The notes beneath the pieces are model-generated. The model ran no database searches, was not told where the DNA came from, and worked only from the letters and a program-made list of their open reading frames with translations. A stretch of DNA of 64,000 nucleotides from an uncultured Candidatus Saccharibacteria bacterium (GTDB lineage: Bacteria; Patescibacteriota; Saccharimonadia; Saccharimonadales; AWTP1-31), in the NCBI GenBank assembly GCA_964629815.1, contig CAZVTA010000001.1:10100-74099 (forward strand). The letters run 5' to 3'. Both the position numbers and the translations under genes were made by a program. Shown here in pieces: positions 7,968 through 61,181 of the stretch (the first letter of the stretch is position 1; each line of letters opens with the position of its first letter).

Positions 7968-10712
7968 ATGGGGCAGACTACGATCCTAGAGCGTAGGAGG
8001 CTGTTTACTCAGCCAAAAACTAAGGGATATGACGCGCTAAATTGGGTAAAGCGCGATTCAATTATTACTAATCCAATGACTGGAAAGGCTGTATTCGAGC
8101 AGCGAGACGTAGAGTTTCCAGAGGGTTGGTCGCTCAATGCAATTAATATTGTTGCCCAAAAATACTTTACCGGTACACCGGGATCTGATGATCGCGAATC
8201 CTCACTTCGTCATCTCATCGATCGTGTTGTAGATACGATAACTAAGCAAGGTCTTCAAGAGAGTTATTTCGAGTCAAAAGAAGAGGCCGAAGACTTTAAA
8301 GAGGAACTAAAGTACGTACTTGCAACGCAACGCGCTGCGTTTAACTCGCCAGTATGGTTTAATATTGGCGCTCCTTCACGTTCTCAACAGGCAAGTGCAT
8401 GTTTTATTCTTGCGGTAGAAGATACTATGCCCTCGATCCTTAATTGGTATAAAGAAGAGGGCATGATCTTTAAGGGTGGCTCTGGAGCGGGGCTCAACTT
8501 GAGTTCAATTCGTTCATCGAAAGAGCGTCTTGGCAAAAGTGCCGGCACAGCATCTGGCCCTCTAAGCTTTATGCGTGGAGCGGATGCATCGGCAGGTGCA
8601 ATCAAGAGTGGAGGAAAAACACGGCGAGCCGCTAAAATGGTTATTTTGAATGCCGATCACCCAGATATCGAAGAATTCATCTGGTGTAAAGCAATCGAAG
8701 AGCGTAAAGCGCGCGTTCTGCAGCAAAACGGTTTTGACATGAACCTTGACGGCAGGGATTCGTTCTCTGTACAGTACCAAAATGCTAATAACTCGGTACG
8801 TGTAACCGATGAATTTATGCAGGCTGTTGCCGACGACAAAGATTGGGACTTGAAGGCTGTTACCAATGGCGATACGGTTAAGACTGTTCGTGCGCGTGAT
8901 TTGTATCGACAAATCGCTGAGGCAGCATGGGAGTGTGCAGATCCCGGTATGCAGTTCGACACAACCATCAACAAGTGGCACACTACGCCAAATGCAGGAC
9001 GTATCAACGGAAGCAACCCGTGTAGTGAGTATATGCATCTGGACAACTCGGCATGTAACCTGGCGTCAATCAATCTACTAAAATATCTTAACGACGATGC
9101 TTCATTCGATGTTGAAGCCTTTAAACACACTGTTGAGTTGATCTTTACGGCTCAAGAGATTCTTGTCGGCTACTCTGAATATCCAACTGAAAATATCACC
9201 AAAAACGCTAAAGCATATCGTGAGCTAGGCATTGGTTATGCAAACCTTGGCGCGTTATTAATGGCGCAAGGCTTGCCATACGATTCTGACGAAGGACGAG
9301 CTCAGGCAGCAGCAATCACGGCTTTAATGACAGGTCATGCATATGCAACGAGCGCAAAGATCGCACACCGCGTTGGTCCATTCGCGGGCTTTCATAAAGA
9401 CCAAGACAATATGATAAAAGTATTGCGTATGCACCGAGAAGCTGTCTCTCAGATAGATGCTAGTTTAGTCTCGGAAGAGTTGCTCAGTGCGGCTGCAGCT
9501 GCCTGGGATGATGCAGTAGAGCTAGGGCAACTTTATGGTGTCCGCAACGCTCAGGCCAGTGTTTTGGCGCCGACAGGAACAATTGGTCTTATGATGGACT
9601 GTGATACTACCGGTATTGAGCCAGACCTCGGTCTTGTTAAAGTTAAGAAGTTGGTCGGTGGTGGTACGATGAGCATTGTGAATCAAACAGTGCCTCGTGC
9701 GCTTAAGGCGCTTGGCTATTCCCAAAGTCAGATTGATGACATTGTTACTCATATCGATGTCGAAAAGAAGATAACTGGCGCACCGCACCTCAAGAAAGAG
9801 CACGAAGCAGTATTTGCGTGTTCTATGGGCGATAACCCAATTCACTATCTTGGACACGTTAAGATGATGTCCGCAGTCCAGCCGTTCATATCGGGGGCTA
9901 TCAGCAAGACTGTTAACATGCCAGAAGACGTAACAGTTGAAGATGTTGAACAGCTACATATGGATGCATGGAGGCTTGGTCTTAAGGCGGTTGCTATCTA
10001 TCGTGACAACTGTAAAGTTGGGCAGCCACTCAGCATGGCTAAGAAGGACGGCGAAGAAGCAAAACAGCAAGTGAGTGATGTTACGGACAAGATTATCTTG
10101 AAGGGTGCTGTGCGCCGTGAACTACCAAAGGTGCGCAACTCTAAGACGTTTTCATTCAAAGTTGCGGATAGTCATGGCTTTATGACGGTCGGTGAGTATG
10201 ACGACGGCAATCCAGGCGAAGTGTTTGTAAACATATCTAAGCAAGGCTCAACTCTGCGTGGTATCATGGATGCTTTTGCTATAAGCATTAGTCATGGTCT
10301 TCAGTTTGGCGTGCCGCTCAAAGACTACGTTAAGTCGTTTATGAGTATGTCGTTTGCGCCAGCAGGCATAACCGATGACCCAGAGATTCGCACGGCATCA
10401 TCTATCATTGACTATATTGCACGCCGTTTGGCGATGACGTATCTAAGCTTTGATGACAGGCTTGAACTCGGTCTTGCGTCAGTCGATGATATGCCCGATA
10501 CCCAGACAAACTTGCTCGATACAGTTGCTCCCGAACCAAAAGTACAGGAAGTAAAAGTCGAGCAAGAACAAAAGGTGGCTCCGGTAGCAACACAACAGAA
10601 GACGGCCGCTGACGATACGGCACCGCTCTGTTACAACTGCGGTAACCAGACACAGCGAGCGGGCAGCTGTTATGTGTGTACTGCATGTGGTAGCACAACT
10701 GGCTGTAGCTAG
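7968..10712 (+). CDS. nrdJ: Class II (adenosylcobalamin-dependent) ribonucleoside-triphosphate/diphosphate reductase
   Basis: 914-aa ORF with an RNR 10-stranded barrel motif series (NPCSEY, ACNLASINL, APTGTIG..GIEP). C-terminal Cys-rich tail CYNCGNQTQRAGSCYVCTACGSTTGCS. No separate beta subunit is adjacent. Confidence 0.92.
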   Translation: MGQTTILERRRLFTQPKTKGYDALNWVKRDSIITNPMTGKAVFEQRDVEFPEGWSLNAINIVAQKYFTGTPGSDDRESSLRHLIDRVVDTITKQGLQESYFESKEEAEDFKEELKYVLATQRAAFNSPVWFNIGAPSRSQQASACFILAVEDTMPSILNWYKEEGMIFKGGSGAGLNLSSIRSSKERLGKSAGTASGPLSFMRGADASAGAIKSGGKTRRAAKMVILNADHPDIEEFIWCKAIEERKARVLQQNGFDMNLDGRDSFSVQYQNANNSVRVTDEFMQAVADDKDWDLKAVTNGDTVKTVRARDLYRQIAEAAWECADPGMQFDTTINKWHTTPNAGRINGSNPCSEYMHLDNSACNLASINLLKYLNDDASFDVEAFKHTVELIFTAQEILVGYSEYPTENITKNAKAYRELGIGYANLGALLMAQGLPYDSDEGRAQAAAITALMTGHAYATSAKIAHRVGPFAGFHKDQDNMIKVLRMHREAVSQIDASLVSEELLSAAAAAWDDAVELGQLYGVRNAQASVLAPTGTIGLMMDCDTTGIEPDLGLVKVKKLVGGGTMSIVNQTVPRALKALGYSQSQIDDIVTHIDVEKKITGAPHLKKEHEAVFACSMGDNPIHYLGHVKMMSAVQPFISGAISKTVNMPEDVTVEDVEQLHMDAWRLGLKAVAIYRDNCKVGQPLSMAKKDGEEAKQQVSDVTDKIILKGAVRRELPKVRNSKTFSFKVADSHGFMTVGEYDDGNPGEVFVNISKQGSTLRGIMDAFAISISHGLQFGVPLKDYVKSFMSMSFAPAGITDDPEIRTASSIIDYIARRLAMTYLSFDDRLELGLASVDDMPDTQTNLLDTVAPEPKVQEVKVEQEQKVAPVATQQKTAADDTAPLCYNCGNQTQRAGSCYVCTACGSTTGCS

Positions 10713-14639: not shown

Positions 14640-17600
14640 GTGGAAATAGGCCAAAAAAAGCATAAACGCGTTACTCGTGCTGTCAAACATGGAGTTGGCA
14701 AGGTGTATCCTCATGCGAAGAAAACAGTGCGTGTTGTATATAAGGGCGCGCGTGCCGGAACTAAAATTACCGTTCACTCGGCTAAAAGGGCTCGCTACCA
14801 TCTTGCGACCCGACCGCATGTGTATATGCAAGATAACTGGGCATGGTACGGAAAATGGCACTCTTGGCGCTGGCACAAGTTAGTTCATTTTAGTACGCTT
14901 GCACTCTATCTGGCCGTTATAACCGCGATGGTACTAAACGCTTCAAATCTTCCAAGTTCGGCCTTGAGCACGTGGTCGCAAACTAACTGGAGTGGCGGAA
15001 GTGGCACTAATACTTCTACGCAGTATGAGAGTCTTTCTAATATAGACGCCACAATTGCTAACCAGCTGACGCTGAGTAAAAGTAGCAACAGCTTCTCTAA
15101 TTCGACATTCGACAGTAACTTAACGGGCTGGAATGGGTATGGCAAGAGTTATGACACAACACAGAGCTATTCAGCGAGTGGCTCAGCTAAGATTATTGCA
15201 GGCGGAGTTTCTTCGGCTACCTTCTACAATCAAATAACAACAACTGGAGTTTCAAATCAAAACCAAATAGCTAGTGGAGATATTAATGGGGATGGCCTTG
15301 ATGATATTGCAATTTCAACATATGTAGCAGTTACAGGTACAGAAATACGTTGGTATCCTTCTAACGGAAATGGAACGTATGGCTCCGCCAATATTATTAA
15401 TACGCCCACCGGTGGAGCGTATAGTTTAGTTATCGGCGACTTTACCGGTGACGGCTGGAATGATCTTGTAGCTACGCAATCCTATGCGAGTGGCACAAAT
15501 AAACTGGCTTACTTTACCAATAATGGGTCTGGCTCATTATCTTCTCCTACTGAGGTTACTATTACCGGCGCCCCTACCGGTGGCACAAGAACGTGTTATA
15601 TAAAAAAGGGCTATATCGATAGTAATGCTTCACTTGATATGGTTGTAACATGTAACTCAGCTAACTTATTTATTTTTAATAATAACGGTTCTGGAACTTT
15701 CACGCAGAATAATTACGCAATGGGGTTTACATCAGGCAGCACGCCACCCCAACTAGCTATAGTAGATATCAATAATGATAGCCGGCCAGAGCTGGTATAC
15801 AACAACACAAATACCAATAGCTGCCTATTTTACGTCATGCCGAATAATGGGAGTACTTTTGATTCGCCGGTTAGCTACACCCTAAACCAGTGCGGAACAG
15901 GTTCTGTTGTAAAATATGCACTAGCTGGTGGGGACATAAATGGCGATGGCTATGGGGATGTTGCTATTGGTCGACGTACAGGCACGGGCGGTACAGCCAC
16001 CTCCGATACGTATTACCTAACTACACTACTGGGTACGTCTTCGACTACTTTGACCACACAAACTGATTATGCCGGTGCGACCGGCAGTGATGATGCGACA
16101 TCCGAAATAGTAATAACTGATGTTACAGGCGACGGATATGGCGACATCATGCAGGAGCTTCCCAGTAACAGTGTTATGGGTTACTACAAAAATAACGGCA
16201 ATGGGACACTAGCGGCAAAAGTCGATTACTCCACAGGGTCTGGTCCTAGCGGCATTGCAGCTACTGACTTCAATGGTGATGGTTACCTAGATTTCTCTGT
16301 TGTAAACAGTACGGGTGGAACAATCTCTACCTTTATTAATCGCACTCCAGGAGACGCGATTACTCAAACAGTGAACGTTGGAGATATAAGTACCTATCAG
16401 CTCGAAGTCTATGCGTATACCAGTGGAGCGGCAGTAACTAGTGCCGATGCAGTGTTGTGGTACAACGGTGCAGCAGTAAGTACGACCTTTACTGCAAGCG
16501 CAACGCCTGGTTGGTATAAGCTCACCGGAACATTAACTGGTGCCAACGCTAAGCGGAGTATTGGCGTGTTGGTAAAACAGGGTAAAACGGTTTATATTGA
16601 CAGCTTCACAGTGTATAAATATTCTTCTTCTGGGTATGTGAATTCGGCCATATTTGATCCCGGCTATGGTGGAGATTGGGGGAATTTAGCATATACTACT
16701 ACCAATAGTTCGGGGGTAACTGTAAAAGTAAGAACTTCAAATAGCTCTAGTATGTCGGGTGCTACGGCGTTTGGTTCTTGTAGCGCAATAACATCGGGTA
16801 GCGATATTTCAAGCAATGGCTGTGTTACCGATGGCGACAGATATATTCAGTATCAGGTAACGCTCACGCCAGTATCCGGAGATACGCCAGTATTTAGTTC
16901 ATTCTCTTTAGACTATGCTGCGTATGATGTATTGGCGCCGGACACAAATGCCTCAAGTATTATCATGAAGAAAGCGGCAGGTGGTGATGATGTTGCGTTA
17001 AATGATTGGACGAATGGTGCGAGTCCATATTTTAGCTGGACGGCTGGTGCAGATAATGCCGGTGGAGCGGGTTTGCTGGGGTATTGTGTGTACTTGGGTA
17101 CCGATAATACTGCCGACCCAGTTACAACTAAAGGACTACTTGGAACAACGCCAGTAAGTAATGCAGCCTGTCCGTTTATTGTTAATGACACTGAGCTTGA
17201 CCTTGGCACGGCTGGTTTGCTGGGCACGGCGCTTACAACATCCAATAGCGCCTATTACATCAGTATAAAAGCAGTTGATGTTGTTGGTAATGTGTATACG
17301 GGGTCGTCCGAGCAGTTCCATTTTCGCTTTGATAACACGGTGCCAAGTAATCCGGCCTATCTATCGGCGCCATCGCAGTTTTTGAACACAAAAACTGCGA
17401 CAGTAACATGGCCTGCAAGTGGCGATGGTGTAGCAGCGGACGCTAATTCTGGCCTGGCGGGTTTACAATATAAGATTAATTCTTCCGTATGGTATGGCGA
17501 CGACCATACAGGCGATGGCGATATAAATGACTTATTAGCCAATGACGGCGCGTATACTACTATTGACCCCACTGATTTCGATAACATCAACGACGGCGTC

Positions 17601-19505
17601 AATACTATCTATGTACGCACATGGGATAACGCGGGCAATGTAACTACGAGTTATGTTACCGCTGCCTTAAAAGTAAATACCAATGGTTCACCATCAGAAC
17701 CCCAGAATGTTACCGCTACGCCCACTACTAATGTGACTAATAGCTTTGCGTTTAGTTGGACTACTCCGGCAACCTATGTTGGGCAGGCAAGTGGCTTAAC
17801 GTACTGCTATACCATAAACGTGGTGCCCTCATCAGGCAACTGTTCCTTTACGGCTGCTGGTGTAACGAGTCTTGACGCTGGCGCTTATGCAACCCAGCCG
17901 GGAACAAACACGTTTTATGTTGTCGCGAAGGACGAGTCAAGCAACATTAATTATTCTAGCTATGCGAGTACGACCTTTACGGCAAATACGCCGGCGCCAG
18001 GCTTGCCGGTTAATGTTGACGTAGTAGATGTATCCCTGAAAGCAACGAGCAATTGGCGCCTTGCTCTTACGTGGGACGAGCCGGATGACACAGGTGCGGG
18101 TATCGCGAGCTATAAGATTTTTCGTAGCACTGATAATAATTCATTCTCTCAAGTAGGCTCAAGTAGTAGTACCTCGTATGTGGATAGCGGATTGTCACAG
18201 CAAGAGTACTTCTACCGTATTAAGGCTTGTGACAGCGCAAACCAGTGCAGCGCGGTCAGTTCTACGGTAAACGAGACCCCTACCGGAAAGTTTACCGCTC
18301 CTGCCAATATGACAAGCGAACCGGAGGTGAGTGATATTACGACGAAACGAGCCACGATTAGCTGGAGCACCGACAGAACATCCGATAGTAAAATACAAAT
18401 AGGTACGGCTAGTGGCGAGTATAGTCCGTCGGAAGTTGGTAACTCTGAACAGGTTACGGCTCATGACATAGAGCTAGATAATCTTGCCGCAGGCACAACT
18501 TACTATTTCAAGGCGTTATGGACTGACGAAGATGGGAATACGGGCATGAGTCAGGAATACTCGTTTACGACAGCACCTGCCCCCCTACTCAAAGAGGTTA
18601 ATACGCTTTTAGTAGGGCTAAGCACGGCAACGATACAATTTACTGTTAGGGATGCAACCAAGGTCTCGATTAGGTATGGAAAATCAGATGCTTTCGGGGG
18701 TATTAAGTCTCTGAATACATCTATGAATGAGTCAACCTACGAGGTTGAGCTGGGAGGATTAGACGATGGGGCGAAGTATCTATACCAGCTAACAATGACT
18801 GATAGCGAAGGTGGTGAGTATGACAGTAGTATCTTCTCGCTTACTACACCTCCTAGACCAAAGATTAGTAATCTACGCTTCCAGCCGGTTGCTGGAGAGC
18901 CAACAAGTACTCAGCAAATAACTTGGACAACCAATATAGCGACTTCTTCGATTGTTGCTTATGGCAAAACAGGTTCTAGTGGTACGATCATACAGACTAA
19001 CGAATTGAAGACTGCTCACGAGGTAGTGATTCGTGGCTTGGAAGACGACAGTGAATATTTCTTAATTGCGCAAGGAAGGGACTCTAACGGTAACCTGGCA
19101 ACTTCTGATAAGCAAGTTTTCAAGACGGCGCTCGATACACGGCCGCCATCAGTAAGCGACATTGTGATCGAGCCCAGCATCCGTGGTACCGGAACAGAGG
19201 CAAGAGGGCAGATTATTGTTTCGTGGAAGACCGACGAGCCGTCTACCAGTCAGGTTGCGTATGCAGAAGGCTCTGCTGCTACGGTATTCAATAATAAGAC
19301 CGCAGAAGATGCACAGCTAACAACTGAACATCTAGTGATCATATCAGATCTGCCACCAAGCCGGGTGTTTACAATATTGCCTATTTCTAAAGACAAATCC
19401 GGAAATGCGTCTTCTTCTACAGGACAAGCTGCGATAATTGGTAGGGCATCAGACAGTGTACTCAATATAGTTCTCAACACGCTTAGAAAGGTATTTGGTC
19501 TCTAG
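14640..19505 (+). CDS. Giant (1621 aa) N-terminally membrane-anchored surface protein with an FG-GAP/VCBS beta-propeller, a CBM-like jelly roll and multiple Ig/Fn3-like domains
   Basis: GTG start with SD. Basic K/R/H-rich N-terminus of about 80 aa, then one TM helix (LVHFSTLALYLAVITAMVLNA). Seven DxNxDGxxD-type repeats, then Ig-like and Fn3-like modules. High Thr/Ser/Asn/Gly content and no LPXTG. Confidence 0.85.
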   Translation: MEIGQKKHKRVTRAVKHGVGKVYPHAKKTVRVVYKGARAGTKITVHSAKRARYHLATRPHVYMQDNWAWYGKWHSWRWHKLVHFSTLALYLAVITAMVLNASNLPSSALSTWSQTNWSGGSGTNTSTQYESLSNIDATIANQLTLSKSSNSFSNSTFDSNLTGWNGYGKSYDTTQSYSASGSAKIIAGGVSSATFYNQITTTGVSNQNQIASGDINGDGLDDIAISTYVAVTGTEIRWYPSNGNGTYGSANIINTPTGGAYSLVIGDFTGDGWNDLVATQSYASGTNKLAYFTNNGSGSLSSPTEVTITGAPTGGTRTCYIKKGYIDSNASLDMVVTCNSANLFIFNNNGSGTFTQNNYAMGFTSGSTPPQLAIVDINNDSRPELVYNNTNTNSCLFYVMPNNGSTFDSPVSYTLNQCGTGSVVKYALAGGDINGDGYGDVAIGRRTGTGGTATSDTYYLTTLLGTSSTTLTTQTDYAGATGSDDATSEIVITDVTGDGYGDIMQELPSNSVMGYYKNNGNGTLAAKVDYSTGSGPSGIAATDFNGDGYLDFSVVNSTGGTISTFINRTPGDAITQTVNVGDISTYQLEVYAYTSGAAVTSADAVLWYNGAAVSTTFTASATPGWYKLTGTLTGANAKRSIGVLVKQGKTVYIDSFTVYKYSSSGYVNSAIFDPGYGGDWGNLAYTTTNSSGVTVKVRTSNSSSMSGATAFGSCSAITSGSDISSNGCVTDGDRYIQYQVTLTPVSGDTPVFSSFSLDYAAYDVLAPDTNASSIIMKKAAGGDDVALNDWTNGASPYFSWTAGADNAGGAGLLGYCVYLGTDNTADPVTTKGLLGTTPVSNAACPFIVNDTELDLGTAGLLGTALTTSNSAYYISIKAVDVVGNVYTGSSEQFHFRFDNTVPSNPAYLSAPSQFLNTKTATVTWPASGDGVAADANSGLAGLQYKINSSVWYGDDHTGDGDINDLLANDGAYTTIDPTDFDNINDGVNTIYVRTWDNAGNVTTSYVTAALKVNTNGSPSEPQNVTATPTTNVTNSFAFSWTTPATYVGQASGLTYCYTINVVPSSGNCSFTAAGVTSLDAGAYATQPGTNTFYVVAKDESSNINYSSYASTTFTANTPAPGLPVNVDVVDVSLKATSNWRLALTWDEPDDTGAGIASYKIFRSTDNNSFSQVGSSSSTSYVDSGLSQQEYFYRIKACDSANQCSAVSSTVNETPTGKFTAPANMTSEPEVSDITTKRATISWSTDRTSDSKIQIGTASGEYSPSEVGNSEQVTAHDIELDNLAAGTTYYFKALWTDEDGNTGMSQEYSFTTAPAPLLKEVNTLLVGLSTATIQFTVRDATKVSIRYGKSDAFGGIKSLNTSMNESTYEVELGGLDDGAKYLYQLTMTDSEGGEYDSSIFSLTTPPRPKISNLRFQPVAGEPTSTQQITWTTNIATSSIVAYGKTGSSGTIIQTNELKTAHEVVIRGLEDDSEYFLIAQGRDSNGNLATSDKQVFKTALDTRPPSVSDIVIEPSIRGTGTEARGQIIVSWKTDEPSTSQVAYAEGSAATVFNNKTAEDAQLTTEHLVIISDLPPSRVFTILPISKDKSGNASSSTGQAAIIGRASDSVLNIVLNTLRKVFGL
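15276..16298 (+). repeat. Seven FG-GAP/VCBS-like calcium-binding repeats (protein-level repeat, probable 7-bladed propeller)
   Basis: GDINGDGLDDIA, GDFTGDGWNDLV, GYIDSNASLDMV, VDINNDSRPELV, GDINGDGYGDVA, TDVTGDGYGDIM and TDFNGDGYLDFS, spaced about 50-60 aa apart. Confidence 0.7.
18291..19440 (+). repeat. Four tandem Fn3-like modules of about 95 aa each (purple-acid-phosphatase-N-like) at the C-terminus of the giant protein
   Basis: Recurrent pattern (A/I)T(I/V)xW(S/T)T(D/N)...S.(V/I)xYG...T.H.(V/I).(L/I)..L...T.Y.(F/Y), each module ending in a T(A/P)P-type linker. Confidence 0.6.
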
Positions 19506-23913: not shown

Positions 23914-24008
23914 AGCCTACTATAGCGGAAAATGGGGCGTTATGCACATGTTAATACATGGTCAATTACAGCTGTTCCTCAGAATCTTTGGTATACTGGA
24001 TAGTAAAT

Positions 24009-24758
24009 ATGAGACAAATTACGGCCAAAATAAAACCTAAGTCCGGATTCGCAAACATACTGCATTATCTGTTGCTTTCGTTGTTGCCAATAACAATATT
24101 CGTACTCGTGCGACTTCGCTTTTTTCAGTTGGCGGCAGCGCTTATCGTGGTAAGTAAATGGCGCATGTTTGCAGTAAAGCCGCGGCACTGGCCTGCGAAC
24201 TTACGTGCAAATGCTGTAGATATAATTGTTGGCATAGCATTCTTGGTGTTTATGATTCAGAGTGCTTCACAGGCTGGACAGCTGTTCTGGGCATTCGGAT
24301 ACATCGGCTGGTTGACATGGCTGAAGCCAAAATCGAGTGATTTAGGGGTGTCGGTGCAGGCGCTCGCAGCACAGGTCCTAGGCATGATAGCGGTCTATCT
24401 TGTTTGGGGTAGTGCGCCTATTATTGTGCTTATGCTTGCTTCATGGGCCGTTTCTTATTCGGCAGCGCGACACTTTTTTGCAAACTTTGAAGAATCATAT
24501 ATTCGGTTCTTGGCGTATTCTTGGGGCTTCTTTTCATTGGCGCTCTCTTGGCTGACAGGGCATTGGCTGATTTTTTATGGATCTGTTTCGCAGCCAGCGC
24601 TACTCCTTGCAGTGCTTTCATTTGGTCTTGGTTCGCTATACTATCTCGATAAGACAGATAGGCTTAGTCCAATGCTTCGAAGGCAACTACTTGTGTTGAT
24701 GACGGGAGTTGTATTAATAATTATTACGTTCTCGGAATGGGGGGATAGAACGATATAA
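24009..24758 (+). CDS. Polytopic membrane protein of unknown function
   Basis: About 250 aa with 6-7 predicted hydrophobic helices and no motif I recognise. ATG 24009 is preferred over the track's 23958. Confidence 0.6.
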   Translation: MRQITAKIKPKSGFANILHYLLLSLLPITIFVLVRLRFFQLAAALIVVSKWRMFAVKPRHWPANLRANAVDIIVGIAFLVFMIQSASQAGQLFWAFGYIGWLTWLKPKSSDLGVSVQALAAQVLGMIAVYLVWGSAPIIVLMLASWAVSYSAARHFFANFEESYIRFLAYSWGFFSLALSWLTGHWLIFYGSVSQPALLLAVLSFGLGSLYYLDKTDRLSPMLRRQLLVLMTGVVLIIITFSEWGDRTI

Positions 24759-36977: not shown

Positions 36978-37616
36978 CTATTCCACTAGTTTTGCTTCTA
37001 ATACGTAGCGTTTAGCGGTGCTTCCTAGCGGAAAACATGTGTACAGCGTTAGTTTGGCGGGGGCATCTGGGTCGTAATCTCGAATGTCTATCTGATTAGG
37101 AAGTACCTCTTGCGTGTTGTAGACAGAGTATTCATATGTTCGACTATTCCATATAACGTAAAGTTTTTCGCCAATTTTAATTTCCGGTAGATTATAGAAC
37201 TGGCCACCATTGAGGGCGCTATACAGGAAACGATGGCCTGCAATAACAAGATTGCCCGGCTGTTCGGGTGAGACTGTGTTCGTTTCGCGCCATACACCCT
37301 GATTTTTTCCGATTACATCTATGCTTTTGCCGTCGATGATTTGGGTGTTTATGCCTATAGAAGGCAGGATTAGCCGGTTGCCATTGTAGTTGGTATTGGT
37401 CGGCAGCGATTTTGACTGAGCAGCATTCGCCAGCTCTGTTGTGCGAATGCTTGGTCTACGAAGCAAGAATACGATTTTTGGGATATATGGGAACACAATA
37501 ACAATGATACTGGCGACACACACAAGGGTAAGGAAAGCACTGAGCAATGAAATATGTAATCTTCTAGTATTCTTTTTTTGTGGGATAGCATTGTCGCTTT
37601 TGTGATCAGTACGCAT
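36978..37616 (-). CDS. Sortase-family transpeptidase
   Basis: N-terminal TM anchor, catalytic His context VIAGHR, TLYTC (TLxTC) Cys motif, and a downstream Arg (KRYVLEA). Confidence 0.85.
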   Translation of the reverse strand: MRTDHKSDNAIPQKKNTRRLHISLLSAFLTLVCVASIIVIVFPYIPKIVFLLRRPSIRTTELANAAQSKSLPTNTNYNGNRLILPSIGINTQIIDGKSIDVIGKNQGVWRETNTVSPEQPGNLVIAGHRFLYSALNGGQFYNLPEIKIGEKLYVIWNSRTYEYSVYNTQEVLPNQIDIRDYDPDAPAKLTLYTCFPLGSTAKRYVLEAKLVE

Positions 37617-37667
37617 TGAATCATATTATACCAATAGGCTTGTGCTTTTCTGTGATATAGTGTGATT

Positions 37668-38474
37668 ATGGCAATACTAAAAAAAACTACAGGGAAGAAA
37701 GTAACATTTAACCAATTGCATCGATGGAATGTGGCTATGGCCGTCTTGCATGCTATCCAAGGACTGCTGGTGATCGTTCTCAGTAAGTCAAATGCATGGA
37801 CTGTCAGTACGAGCTATCTGCAGCTTGATGAGGTTGCGACAAAAATACTGGGTCGTCCAGTTCTAGAGTCTGCATCGCGCGATCTGTTTGATGTTAATCT
37901 TGCGTATATCGTAGCCACATTCTTCTTTATGTCGGCAATCGCACATACCTTAATTGCCACTATATATCGAAAGCAGTATGAACGTAATCTTTCGCGAGGC
38001 ATAAATAAGGCGCGGTGGATAGAATACGGATTTAGCGCCAGCGTTATGATGATCGGTATCGCTTTGCTGAGCGGCATTTATGACCTTTCTACGTTAATCA
38101 TGATCTTTGTTCTCGATATGATTATGAATTTGCTTGGACTGGTTATGGAAACGCATAACGAGGGCAAGAAACAGCCAAATTGGCTAAGTTACTGGATCGG
38201 TTGTCTCGCAGGTATTGTACCGTGGGTAGTGTTTGGTATCTATGTGTGGGGCGCAACGGTGTATGGCGGAGGTAATATACCAACATTTGTGTACTGGATT
38301 TATGTCAGTATATTTCTGTTCTTTAATAGTTTCGCAGTTAATATGTATCTCCAGTACAAGAAAAAGGGCAAATGGTCAGATTATTTGTACGGTGAACGTG
38401 CATATATGGTCTTAAGTCTTGTTGCGAAGTCGGTTCTTGCTTGGCAGGTCTTTGCTGGGTCTCTTCGTCCGTAA
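37668..38474 (+). CDS. Heliorhodopsin (retinal-binding 7-TM photoreceptor, inverted topology family)
   Basis: Near-colinear similarity to heliorhodopsin 48C12 as I recall it: RWIEYGFSASVMM, YWIGCLAGIVPWVVFGIYV, FLFFNSFAVNMYLQYKKKGKWSDYLYGERAYMVLSLVAKSVLAWQVF. Schiff-base Lys codon AAG at 38427-38429 and counterion Glu GAA at 38022-38024. Alternative GTG start at 37662. Confidence 0.88.
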   Translation: MAILKKTTGKKVTFNQLHRWNVAMAVLHAIQGLLVIVLSKSNAWTVSTSYLQLDEVATKILGRPVLESASRDLFDVNLAYIVATFFFMSAIAHTLIATIYRKQYERNLSRGINKARWIEYGFSASVMMIGIALLSGIYDLSTLIMIFVLDMIMNLLGLVMETHNEGKKQPNWLSYWIGCLAGIVPWVVFGIYVWGATVYGGGNIPTFVYWIYVSIFLFFNSFAVNMYLQYKKKGKWSDYLYGERAYMVLSLVAKSVLAWQVFAGSLRP

Positions 38475-40469: not shown

Positions 40470-41243
40470 ATGAGTTATTGGAGAGAGCGGAGTCAGCCAT
40501 ATAAGCCAGGACAAAAAACGCCATATAAGGTTAGTCGTAGTAAGATTGAACTTTATATGCAGTGTCCACGCTGTTTCTGGCTAGATGTGCGCCTTAAGAT
40601 ATCACGCCCAAACACGCCCCCATTCAATATTAATAAGGCAATTGATGAGCTGCTTAAGAAAGAGTTTGATTCATATCGTCTAGAGAAAAAGCCGCATCCG
40701 TGGATGATTGAGCACAAAATTGATGCAATACCAATGCAGCACCAAGATCTCGAAACCTGGAGACATAATTTTACAGGTGTTTTCACACTGCATGCAGACA
40801 CTAATCTCCATGTTTTTGGGGCGATAGATGATCTATGGGTTGACAGTAAGGGCGCTCTCATAGTTGTAGATTACAAAGCTACCGCAAAAGATAAAGAGGT
40901 AAATATTGATAGTGAATGGCAGATTAGCTATAAGCGTCAGCTTGAGGTGTATCAATGGCTATTACGACAAAATGGATTCGAGGTTAATAATACGGGATAT
41001 TTTGTTTATACCAATGGTCGTCTTGACGCAGATGGCTTTTTTAACCGTGTTGAATTTTCAACAAAGATTATTCCATATGTCGGGAATGATACATGGATAG
41101 AACCAACGCTTCGAGAGATGAAGCAGTGCATGGAAGGATCGATGCCGCCTGTGGGTAAGGCAGCTATGGGTGGTGATTGTGATTACTGTACATATGCAAA
41201 ACAGCGTACTGAACTAACGATCGCTCATTTGCGCAAGCAGTAA
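40470..41243 (+). CDS. PD-(D/E)XK nuclease, Cas4/RecB-like with four cysteines (CxxC...CxxC)
   Basis: IDD...VVDYK (D..(D/E)xK) and the QLEVY (QxxxY) motif. Cys pairs CPRC near the N-terminus and CDYC near the C-terminus. ATG 40470 is preferred over the track's 40437, which overlaps rsmE. Confidence 0.7.
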   Translation: MSYWRERSQPYKPGQKTPYKVSRSKIELYMQCPRCFWLDVRLKISRPNTPPFNINKAIDELLKKEFDSYRLEKKPHPWMIEHKIDAIPMQHQDLETWRHNFTGVFTLHADTNLHVFGAIDDLWVDSKGALIVVDYKATAKDKEVNIDSEWQISYKRQLEVYQWLLRQNGFEVNNTGYFVYTNGRLDADGFFNRVEFSTKIIPYVGNDTWIEPTLREMKQCMEGSMPPVGKAAMGGDCDYCTYAKQRTELTIAHLRKQ

Positions 41244-53871: not shown

Positions 53872-54264
53872 ATGAGTGATGCAAAAGATACAAAAATGAA
53901 AAAGATTTTATTAGTGGAAGACGATGATGCGCTTGCGAGCGTATATCAGACGAGATTGCAAGCAGAAGGTTTCGATGTAAAACGCGTTCCTAACGGCGAA
54001 GATGCATTAGCGTCTGCAATGGAATATCATCCAGACCTTATTATTCTCGATGTAATGATGCCCAAGGTTACGGGTTTTGACGTGCTAGACATACTACGCA
54101 ATACACCGGAGACTGCAAAGACCAAAGTATTAATGCTGACTGCCCTTAGCCAAGAAAGCGACAAAGACCGTGCAAAAAGCCTTGGGGCAGATGACTATCT
54201 CGTAAAATCTCAAGTTGTGATTGCAGATGTTGTAGAGCGCATCAAACATCACTTAAGTATGTAA
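53872..54264 (+). CDS. Stand-alone response-regulator receiver domain (CheY-like), canonical residues present
   Basis: LLVEDDD, phospho-acceptor context IILDVMMP, LMLTAL (Thr), and DYLVKS (Lys). No output domain. Confidence 0.88.
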   Translation: MSDAKDTKMKKILLVEDDDALASVYQTRLQAEGFDVKRVPNGEDALASAMEYHPDLIILDVMMPKVTGFDVLDILRNTPETAKTKVLMLTALSQESDKDRAKSLGADDYLVKSQVVIADVVERIKHHLSM

Positions 54265-60084: not shown

Positions 60085-60807
60085 ATGACAGATCTACACA
60101 CTATTGGCGACACAGACACTTTTGTTGACGCGCAGTCACGGGTGTTTTTCTCATTGTTACAACAAATTAAAACACCATTTTTGCACATTCGTCACGAGGC
60201 GGAGCTAGGGCATGCGCTGCAAGATCCTGAGCGGTTTCAGCAAGTACAAATAACTGCCGATGCGGCACTTGGATTACTCGATAGCTATATGCTGAGCTTG
60301 CAGCTACAGACAACAGGGCCAGAACTTCAGCTTGAGCCAGTTGCGTTGTCTTCGGTTTTAAATGAGGCTGCGCATGCGCTTCAGTTAACAGCACGAGCAT
60401 ACGACACAGATATACAGCTTGTTCTGGACGGCAAATACGAACCAGTTATTGCGCATAAAGCGGGCTTGTTTGCGGCCTTAACTAGTCTTGGGTATGTATT
60501 GCTGCAAACCCCGTCAGCCGGTGCGCGTAAAACGATCGAACTCAGCGCGCATCGATCGCGTGGTGGTATTGTCGCAGGACTATATGCCAATGGCATGGGT
60601 CTTGAAGCGGGGCTTTTAAAAAAAGCTCGCAGTATACCGACCGCGCGTCAGCCGTTTGGTAACGTTGCTAATATTGGTGGGGCGGGCGTATTTATAGCAG
60701 AGGCATTATTGGAGAGTATGCAATCAAGACTACGGATAGCTCGACATCATAATATGCGTGGGTTGGCGGCAACATTTGTACCGAGCCAACAGATGAGTTT
60801 AGTGTAA
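60085..60807 (+). CDS. Soluble histidine-kinase-like protein with degenerate catalytic boxes (probable pseudokinase)
   Basis: DHp-like FFSLLQQIKTPFLHIRHEAEL (compare FxxxxSHELRTPL) and a GHKL-like C-terminal half. In that half the N-box Asn is absent (TSLGYVLLQ), the G1 Asp is Ala (YANGMG), and G2 reads GGAGVF. No TM helix. Confidence 0.55.
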   Translation: MTDLHTIGDTDTFVDAQSRVFFSLLQQIKTPFLHIRHEAELGHALQDPERFQQVQITADAALGLLDSYMLSLQLQTTGPELQLEPVALSSVLNEAAHALQLTARAYDTDIQLVLDGKYEPVIAHKAGLFAALTSLGYVLLQTPSAGARKTIELSAHRSRGGIVAGLYANGMGLEAGLLKKARSIPTARQPFGNVANIGGAGVFIAEALLESMQSRLRIARHHNMRGLAATFVPSQQMSLV

Positions 60808-61181
60808 TGCGGGTGCTTATTGTCGACCCAGATATAGTGATGTCTCGGCAGATGGTAGCGTCGTTTATTAGTGCAGGACACGATACGATTGCTGCTCATA
60901 CTATTGCTGACGCGGTGAATTATCTGGACAATAATAAGGTCGACGCAGTAGTTTTAGAGCTGCATATTCCGGTACATAATGGCGTCGAATTTATGTACGA
61001 ACTTCGTTCATATACCGACTGGCAAACAATCCCCATTGTGGTATATAGCTATGCGAACGATCGTGTCCTTCCAAGCGTTCGAACGCAACAACAGCTTGGC
61101 ATACAGGCATTTCTCTCAAAAACAAAGCACCGGCTGCGAGATGTTATCGTAGCAGTCGAAGCAACTACAATAAACGTATGA
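60807..61181 (+). CDS. Receiver-domain protein with Glu at the phospho-acceptor position (atypical/pseudo-receiver)
   Basis: MRVLIVDPD..., AVVLELHIPVHNG (Glu codon GAG at 60957-60959 where Asp is expected), VVYSYA (Ser), and FLSKT (Lys). ATG overlaps the upstream stop by 1 nt. Confidence 0.7.
   Translation: MRVLIVDPDIVMSRQMVASFISAGHDTIAAHTIADAVNYLDNNKVDAVVLELHIPVHNGVEFMYELRSYTDWQTIPIVVYSYANDRVLPSVRTQQQLGIQAFLSKTKHRLRDVIVAVEATTINV

Follow-up and report, generated by a model that had tools for sequence, protein, structure and literature searches.

The locus

The window analyzed here, i.e., a 64,000-nucleotide stretch from an uncultured Candidatus Saccharibacteria bacterium (GenBank assembly GCA_964629815.1, contig CAZVTA010000001.1, positions 10,100 to 74,099), has a G + C content of 44.7% and about 60 open reading frames (ORFs), nearly all of them on one strand. 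The ORF at 37662/37668-38474 on the forward strand encodes a heliorhodopsin (HeR) of 270 aa if counted from a GTG codon and of 268 aa if counted from an ATG codon, with its stop codon at 38472-38474. Heliorhodopsins are retinal-binding rhodopsins whose orientation in the membrane is upside-down. This protein, hereafter the window HeR, was compared with the two heliorhodopsins of solved structure, TaHeR from the Thermoplasmatales archaeon SG8-52-1 (PDB 6is6, 7u55, 7clj) and the actinobacterial 48C12 (PDB 6su3, 6uh3, 9ljj). The gene and its key codons, the latter placed by alignment mapping, are the following (TM, transmembrane helix):

37668..38474, + strand: HeR coding sequence, 268 aa plus stop (matches to PF18761, NF038020 and TaHeR in the PDB; AlphaFold2 and Foldseek)
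37749..37751, + strand: CAT, His H28 (48C12 H23), invariant
37944..37946, + strand: CAT, His H93 (48C12 H80), invariant
38022..38024, + strand: GAA, single counterion Glu E119 in TM3 (48C12 E107), invariant
38190..38213, + strand: TM5 side of the lateral fenestration, Y175, C179 and G182 (48C12 F162, C166 and G169)
38322..38336, + strand: TM6 side of the fenestration, F219, N220 and A223 (48C12 F206, N207 and A210)
38415..38417, + strand: AGT, Ser S250 of the SxxxK motif (48C12 S237; motif as defined in PMC9166423)
38427..38429, + strand: AAG, Schiff-base Lys K254 in SLVAK (48C12 K241), invariant in 24 orthologues

A complete heliorhodopsin

The 268-aa protein was matched by the Pfam profile PF18761 (Heliorhodopsin) over 242 of its 242 positions, with an E-value of 1.5e-93 and 313 bits against a cut-off of 26.7, and by the NCBIfam equivalog NF038020, named heliorhodopsin HeR, with 316.8 bits against a curated cut-off of 100. 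Conversely, no match was obtained with the PF01036 profile of type-1 microbial rhodopsins, and the TM7 motif is SxxxK, which is typical of heliorhodopsins, and not the DxxxK of type-1 rhodopsins (PMC9166423). In a sequence search of the PDB, TaHeR came first (6is6, E = 1.7e-69), followed by the structures of 48C12 with E-values of about 1e-51; by pairwise alignment, the global identity of the window HeR was 49% to TaHeR and 43% to 48C12. An AlphaFold2 model built on 24 orthologues (mean predicted local distance difference test score, 81.5) displayed seven long transmembrane helices together with the two-stranded beta-hairpin in extracellular loop 1 (ECL1; strands 44-53 and 66-76) that is typical of heliorhodopsins. 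When this model was compared with the PDB by Foldseek, the ten best matches were all TaHeR or 48C12 (TM-scores of 0.77-0.88, E-values down to 1e-18), those to TaHeR 6is6 and 7u55 scoring 0.82-0.88, whereas type-1 rhodopsin structures reached only 0.5-0.6 with 10-17% identity. Taken together, these results confirmed that the window gene is an intact heliorhodopsin and excluded a chance resemblance. Besides, the identical 268-aa protein is present, unannotated, in ENA and Logan assemblies, including a 34-kb public contig in which it is called from the ATG.

According to the helix boundaries of the model, 18 Lys and Arg residues lie on the N-terminus and intracellular loops (ICL) 1-3, vs. five on ECL1-3 and the C-terminus. 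By the positive-inside count, this uneven charge distribution supports the prediction of an inverted, N-in topology.

Retinal pocket and comparison with solved structures

The gene had been proposed to be a heliorhodopsin by a sequence-only reading. The profile searches bore this identification out, and alignment to the PDB chains of 48C12 and TaHeR confirmed the colinearity that had been claimed, the Lys, the Glu and both His residues being in register. The peptides that it had quoted (AVLHAIQ, SAIAHTL, RWIEYGFSASVMM, YWIGCLAGIVPW and FLFFNSFA...SLVAKS...LAWQ) were all found in the translation, the strings of 48C12 that it had given, RWVEYSLSSSVMI and FWFGCIAGIVPW, agree with the PDB chains, and its coordinates for the Lys codon (AAG, K254) and for the Glu codon (GAA, E119) were exact. 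Likewise, the two His residues that it had pointed out correspond to H23 and H80 of 48C12.

In addition to these residues, the Q229 and E243 residues of the window HeR are the counterparts of Q216 and E230, which belong to the proton-accepting hydrogen-bond network of 48C12. The residues H28, H93, E119, S250, K254, Q229 and E243 were invariant in the 24 Saccharibacteria orthologues, in which overall identity is only 60-73%. In the same set, G182 was invariant and Y175 at least 90% conserved. The fenestration, whose positions were defined as a carotenoid site in a preprint (Kornilov et al., 2025; bioRxiv 10.1101/2025.11.27.691015), displays the aromatic residues Y175 and F219, the small residues C179 and A223, G182 and N220. 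Hence, H23, H80, E107, S237, K241, Q216, E230 and the fenestration positions 162, 166, 169, 206, 207 and 210 of 48C12 map one to one onto the window HeR. The two proteins differ at S112, N138 and Q213 of 48C12, which are replaced by Ala124, Asp150 and Met226, respectively; judging from the alignment, these substitutions could possibly result in minor differences of color or hydrogen bonding.

TaHeR is the best solved relative, with 49% identity over 251 residues and a C-terminal third that is almost identical. Both proteins share the S-A-S triplet after the counterion, a Met at position 213 of 48C12, an I/F pair and SLVAK, and Tyr175 of the window HeR corresponds to Y164 of TaHeR whereas 48C12 has a Phe at this position. 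TaHeR differs by its archaeal host, by an ECL1 that is shorter by six residues and by a TM5-TM6 loop that is shorter by five. Asp150, located in TM4, occurs in neither solved structure.

Start site and leaderless promoter

The intergenic region of 51 bp that separates HeR from the divergent sortase gene contains two back-to-back -10 boxes:

37653..37661, + strand: extended -10 element TGaTATAGT (TGATATAGT), 6 nt upstream of the HeR ATG 37668
37625..37633, - strand: extended -10 element of the divergent sortase gene (TGGTATAAT), 8 nt before the sortase ATG

No Shine-Dalgarno-like motif was found upstream of the HeR start. For 73 related loci (see below), the N-terminus of HeR could be fixed and promoter geometry was counted. 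In 50 of them, against 4.5 expected, a candidate start is preceded at 6-7 nt by a TAnnnT box, and the longer TGnTAnnnT occurs at the same spacing in 36 of them for an expectation of 0.4. The leaderless start claimed from the sequence was thus supported, the geometry of TGATATAGT being conserved in relatives. The HeR mRNA is predicted to be leaderless, with its 5' end at or next to A37668. Because of this conserved distance between the -10 element and the start, ATG 37668 was preferred over the in-frame GTG 37662, which would fall upstream of the predicted transcription start. A two-hexamer promoter scan returned no canonical -35/-10 pair at the HeR start, a result that is uninformative for this gene, whose extended -10 element has no accompanying -35.

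The same layout, i.e., a TAnnnT box, often TG-extended, located 5-11 nt before the start without Shine-Dalgarno motif, was found at about 18 other genes of the window, so that the leaderless arrangement is not peculiar to HeR. Start sites with such boxes, from the sequence scan, include:

2052 (-), 4565, 10791, 31086, 34927, 37616 (-), 38502, 40470, 41280, 48085, 49768, 61178 and 61896

Across the related loci, TGnTAnnnT was present 5-8 nt upstream of 94 of the 890 promoter-proximal genes. In the window, GGAG or GAGG is instead found upstream of FtsZ, NrdR, ribonucleotide reductase (RNR), L21, ParA, EF-Ts and GreA. Judging from start-site layout, leaderless or near-leaderless mRNAs thus seem to be frequent in this Saccharibacterium. 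A literature search on leaderless transcription in Saccharibacteria returned incidental citations only, with no description for this lineage.

Genomic neighborhood and conservation of the locus

Genomes encoding a relative of the window HeR were collected by a scan with one genome per species (at least 591 genomes); the best 80 of them provided the related loci, in which all neighboring ORFs were clustered de novo. Most of these 80 relatives are titled Saccharibacteria or Saccharimonadales metagenome-assembled genomes (MAGs). Among 5.8 billion proteins, the nearest relatives of the window HeR were 69-77% identical to it, and the named ones are called heliorhodopsin HeR [Candidatus Saccharibacteria / Saccharimonadales]. 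Heliorhodopsins of Saccharimonadia and candidate phyla radiation (CPR) bacteria (PMC9166423) have the lineage, the family and the most common TM7 motif, SLVAK, in common with the window HeR, whose identity to any other cluster does not exceed 77%.

The neighbor on the other side of the intergenic region was, as had been claimed, a divergently oriented sortase gene:

36978..37616, - strand: sortase (PF04203, E = 1.3e-20; subfamily scores below the class cut-offs)

The sortase marks a monoderm-type envelope. It occupies position -1 in only 11 of 77 related loci, all within a syntenic subgroup, and a functional link to HeR is improbable. No universally adjacent gene emerged from the de novo clustering of the neighbors of the 80 HeR loci. 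The genes most often found within three genes of HeR were:

PD-(D/E)XK protein: 25 of 80 loci
MsrA (PF01625): 20 of 80 loci
RsmE: 18 of 80 loci
RlmD-like methyltransferase: 18 of 80 loci
Sortase: 12 of 80 loci
HAD phosphatase: 12 of 80 loci

These frequent neighbors form one syntenic block, which is present in the closer relatives and gone from more distant HeR loci. The order of the block in relatives is MacB-(MsrA)-sortase-HeR-RlmD-RsmE-PD-(D/E)XK-SerRS. MsrA lies upstream of HeR, often together with a DUF427 gene (e.g., L033:9227-9760 and the loci L004, L005, L007 and L011), whereas the window block has neither of them and its MacB-sortase gap is 12 nt. Between the window and its closest syntenic relatives, GreA, SecA, SerRS and the PD-(D/E)XK protein are 60-85% identical. 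By this synteny and by the identity of the neighbors, the window belongs to a reduced Saccharibacteria (CPR) genome, in agreement with the reduced, host-dependent bacterium that had been assumed.

In syntenic relatives, mean identity reached 63% for HeR and 59% for SerRS, while it was 45-53% for RlmD, RsmE and the sortase. That HeR is as conserved as SerRS, and much more so than these neighbors, indicates that the gene is under strong purifying selection and has descended vertically rather than through recent transfer. Downstream, RlmD follows HeR at 27 nt; the terminator scan yielded three weak hits against 1.6 expected, none of them between HeR and RlmD. Of the neighbor classes listed in PMC11109279, only MacB-type ABC genes were recognized, in a minority of the 80 loci, most of the neighbor clusters being unannotated.

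Some features of these loci are recorded here in their own right. The PD-(D/E)XK protein encoded at 40470-41243 (+) is a Cas4-like member of this nuclease family that lies outside any CRISPR context; it shows 65-84% identity among Saccharibacteria, above SerRS or HeR, and its likely start, ATG 40470, preceded by TGtTACAAT, falls within the end of rsmE. In a subgroup of Saccharibacteria heliorhodopsins (loci L018, L021, L023, L026, L029 and L032, about 9790-10000 in locus coordinates), an N-terminal extension of 55-65 aa, rich in Lys, Ala, Ser and Thr and histone-tail-like, is found on the cytoplasmic side (e.g., MATTKKSTTKSTAKKSVAKKTTKK...); the window HeR does not have it. Three contigs carrying heliorhodopsins 55-63% identical to that of the window were binned as Methanofastidiosum, Izimaplasma and Dormiibacterota (L030, L035 and L073). 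As L030 and L035 are short contigs (1.6 and 4.6 kb), mis-binning or lateral transfer from CPR is possible.

Window contents and retinal supply

The housekeeping genes of the window encode PriA, adenylate kinase, FtsA/FtsZ, NrdR, class II RNR, IleRS, ParAB, signal peptidase, HtrA, RF1/RF2, EF-Ts, RRF, UppS, SerRS, SecA, FtsEX, CTP synthase, RecO and GlyRS. Neither the Rfam scan nor the tRNA scan of the window returned a hit. Profile searches of all window ORFs of at least 80 aa found no member of the phytoene synthase, phytoene desaturase, lycopene cyclase, Blh/Brp, RPE65/CCD or bacteriorhodopsin families, so that the absence of crt and blh genes from the segment, noticed by the sequence-only reading, was upheld. 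The sole isoprenoid enzyme encoded is undecaprenyl-diphosphate synthase. One ORF at 23958-24758 (+), encoding a multi-TM protein of 266 aa with four His residues, was considered as a cryptic Blh and rejected, as it had no match to Pfam BCD or to NCBIfam Brp/Blh, even at E ≤ 10 and E ≤ 0.1. Neither Pfam nor NCBIfam returned any match to this protein, which is encoded between signal peptidase and HtrA.

Previous work reported that blh is lacking in rhodopsin-encoding Saccharibacteria, which probably take their retinal from Actinobacteria that co-occur with them (PMC9296517). The type-1 rhodopsins of Saccharibacteria (SacR) thus share with the window HeR the host lineage and the dependence on external all-trans retinal that is proposed here, and rapid retinal uptake through a lateral hole was proposed for them (PMC9296517). 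They differ by belonging to the type-1 family, with a DTS motif, by being outward proton pumps and by their opposite orientation in the membrane. The organism of TaHeR is also without a retinal pathway, and TaHeR reportedly takes up retinal rapidly through its fenestration (PMC9296517).

Two other regions of the window encode proteins that may be mentioned. A secreted or surface protein of 1621 aa (14640-19505, +) combines FG-GAP repeats with purple-acid-phosphatase-N (fibronectin-like) domains; given this architecture, it is plausible that it is an adhesin of the episymbiont. Two stand-alone response-regulator receiver domains are encoded together with a 240-aa ORF of faint histidine-kinase-like character (NCBIfam, E = 9e-4) at 53872-54264, 60085-60807 and 60807-61181 (+); since these ORFs lie 16-22 kb from HeR, no link to HeR is implied.

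Proposed function and alternatives

The function that we regard as reasonably probable for the window HeR is that of a light sensor with a slow photocycle, which would take its retinal from outside and modulate a partner. Retinal binding, absorption at about 540-550 nm and a slow, transport-free photocycle are predicted from its residues. The HeR apoprotein would be made from its own leaderless transcript and inserted N-in into the single membrane. From retinal uptake onward, we infer the steps that follow. All-trans retinal, possibly together with a xanthophyll, would be supplied by other organisms such as the host and would enter HeR through the fenestration, an exogenous source being proposed because the lineage reportedly lacks blh and the window lacks carotenoid genes. 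Green light would isomerize the retinal, at a wavelength of roughly 540-550 nm if TaHeR and 48C12 are taken as guides, and the Schiff-base proton would then move to an internal acceptor group with no net transport. The seconds-long intermediate may alter the basic cytoplasmic loops ICL1 (R101-R116) and ICL3 (K231-R244), and the altered loops could touch a partner, either soluble or in the membrane, and modulate it through this direct contact.

There are precedents for such regulation: through charged cytoplasmic residues, other heliorhodopsins bind glutamine synthetase, photolyase or an ABC exporter and regulate them (PMC9529153, PMC9769723, PMC11109279). A light-induced mitigation of oxidative stress was proposed for the heliorhodopsins of monoderms and CPR (PMC8612252, PMC9166423), and heliorhodopsins were reported to be restricted to monoderms (PMC8612252); the adjacent sortase gene and the synteny with Saccharibacteria MAGs place the window among these. 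The only recurrent hint of a partner is MsrA, involved in protein repair after photo-oxidative damage, which lies beside HeR in a quarter of the relatives. It would suit the proposed oxidative-stress role, but it may be mere synteny. A more elaborate version, in which HeR would act as a coincidence detector of "host attached and daylight", appears improbable: the apoprotein would be made constitutively from the conserved leaderless promoter and become photoactive only upon receiving retinal, and perhaps also a xanthophyll, from the host membrane via the outward-accessible fenestration, with an output to protein-repair or oxidative-stress functions such as MsrA.

Several observations weigh against the sensor model. 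None of the ten neighbor classes catalogued in PMC11109279 adjoins the window HeR; the MacB-type ABC pair found two genes upstream represents another type of transporter. The gene neighborhood is conserved only within the syntenic subgroup, with no partner found, and MsrA is absent from the window block, its adjacency elsewhere being perhaps inherited gene order. As to the retinal supply, 64 kb of the genome were covered, and a retinal pathway may be encoded elsewhere in the genome. In addition, several HeR-bearing relatives have isolate names that suggest dim or dark habitats (groundwater, activated sludge), which is awkward for a purely light-sensing role.

The carotenoid site could also point to a "two-antenna" light-harvesting HeR, in which an exogenous xanthophyll bound at the fenestration would funnel energy to the retinal, the inverted topology allowing pigments to be captured outside the monoderm cell. 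All six proposed carotenoid-site positions are present (Y175, C179, G182, F219, N220 and A223), the adjoining sortase indicates a monoderm-type organism, and the lineage lives on pigment-producing hosts (PMC9296517). However, the motif occurs in 91% of all heliorhodopsins and therefore does not discriminate, and the carotenoid binding of prokaryotic heliorhodopsins put forward in the source preprint rests on structure, sequence statistics and docking. This explanation, which we consider unlikely, gives no account of the output; it can be reconciled with the sensor model, to which it is subordinate. The gene could also encode a chromophore-less relic or a structural membrane protein, which would persist without ever acquiring retinal in a retinal-auxotrophic organism. 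This would fit the absence of a retinal pathway from the window and, reportedly, from the lineage (PMC9296517), as well as the dark-sounding habitats of some relatives. It is hardly credible in view of the K254, E119, H28, H93, S250, pocket and fenestration residues, all invariant among 24 orthologues of 60-73% identity, and of a conservation of HeR equal to that of SerRS, which is not expected without a chromophore-dependent function.

A light-gated or light-driven proton transporter, which would change the proton-motive force of a fermentative cell in the light, was considered by reference to the giant-virus heliorhodopsin V2HeR3 (Emiliania huxleyi virus 202), since some heliorhodopsins transport protons (PMC9448325) and Saccharibacteria use type-1 proton pumps (PMC9296517). 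V2HeR3 has the same counterion Glu as the window HeR, and its proton-network Glu, E215, corresponds to E243. Its gate residues E191 and W195, in contrast, are replaced by Ile215 and Phe219, as in TaHeR (I199 and F203), so that the hallmark of proton transport is absent. Transport was not detected for TaHeR (PMC9448325, citing Shihoya 2019), to which the window HeR is 49% identical, and the fenestration-positive class is non-viral and non-transporting, the fenestration motif being absent from the viral subgroup (bioRxiv 10.1101/2025.11.27.691015). Proton transport is accordingly given very little credence. Hardly more probable is a regulator of an adjacent gene product linked to HeR by its operon, i.e., the MacB-type ABC transporter, the sortase, RlmD or RsmE. 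It is true that a heliorhodopsin modulates an ABC exporter in Ornithinimicrobium, that RlmD lies 27 nt downstream with no convincing terminator in between, and that RlmD, RsmE and the PD-(D/E)XK protein are found within three genes in 18-25 of the 80 loci. Nevertheless, adjacency is limited to the closest syntenic relatives, and the neighbors, which serve housekeeping functions, are less well conserved than HeR. In addition, HeR is preceded by a conserved promoter of its own and RlmD by its own -10-like box, and the ABC pair is of the MacB/FtsX type and not the heterodimeric multidrug resistance exporter of the published study.

Significance

The window HeR is an ordinary new orthologue of a catalogued family, of which hundreds of genes are already recorded in this lineage, and its novelty is low. 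Indeed, in a screen of 1326 CPR genomes, Chiriac et al. (2022; PMC9166423) detected heliorhodopsins mostly in Saccharimonadia, with 80 occurrences and SLVAK among the commonest TM7 motifs, relatives are already auto-named heliorhodopsin HeR by the NCBI pipeline, and Jaffe et al. (2022; PMC9296517) posed, and in part tested, the question of the missing blh and of retinal from the host for the rhodopsins of Saccharibacteria. The novelty implied by the sequence-only reading was therefore not sustained, both the heliorhodopsins of Saccharimonadia and the retinal-from-host question being in these studies. The question of what is regulated by light is a general one for all heliorhodopsins, and the locus does not sharpen it.

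The small additions made here are the conservation of the leaderless promoter and the absence of a conserved partner. As no conserved operon partner was present in the 80 loci, the output of HeR should be sought by interaction screens rather than through gene context. Being a clean and complete example, with intact residues, a defined leaderless start and a known syntenic block, the window HeR is usable for expression and for retinal- and carotenoid-uptake assays.

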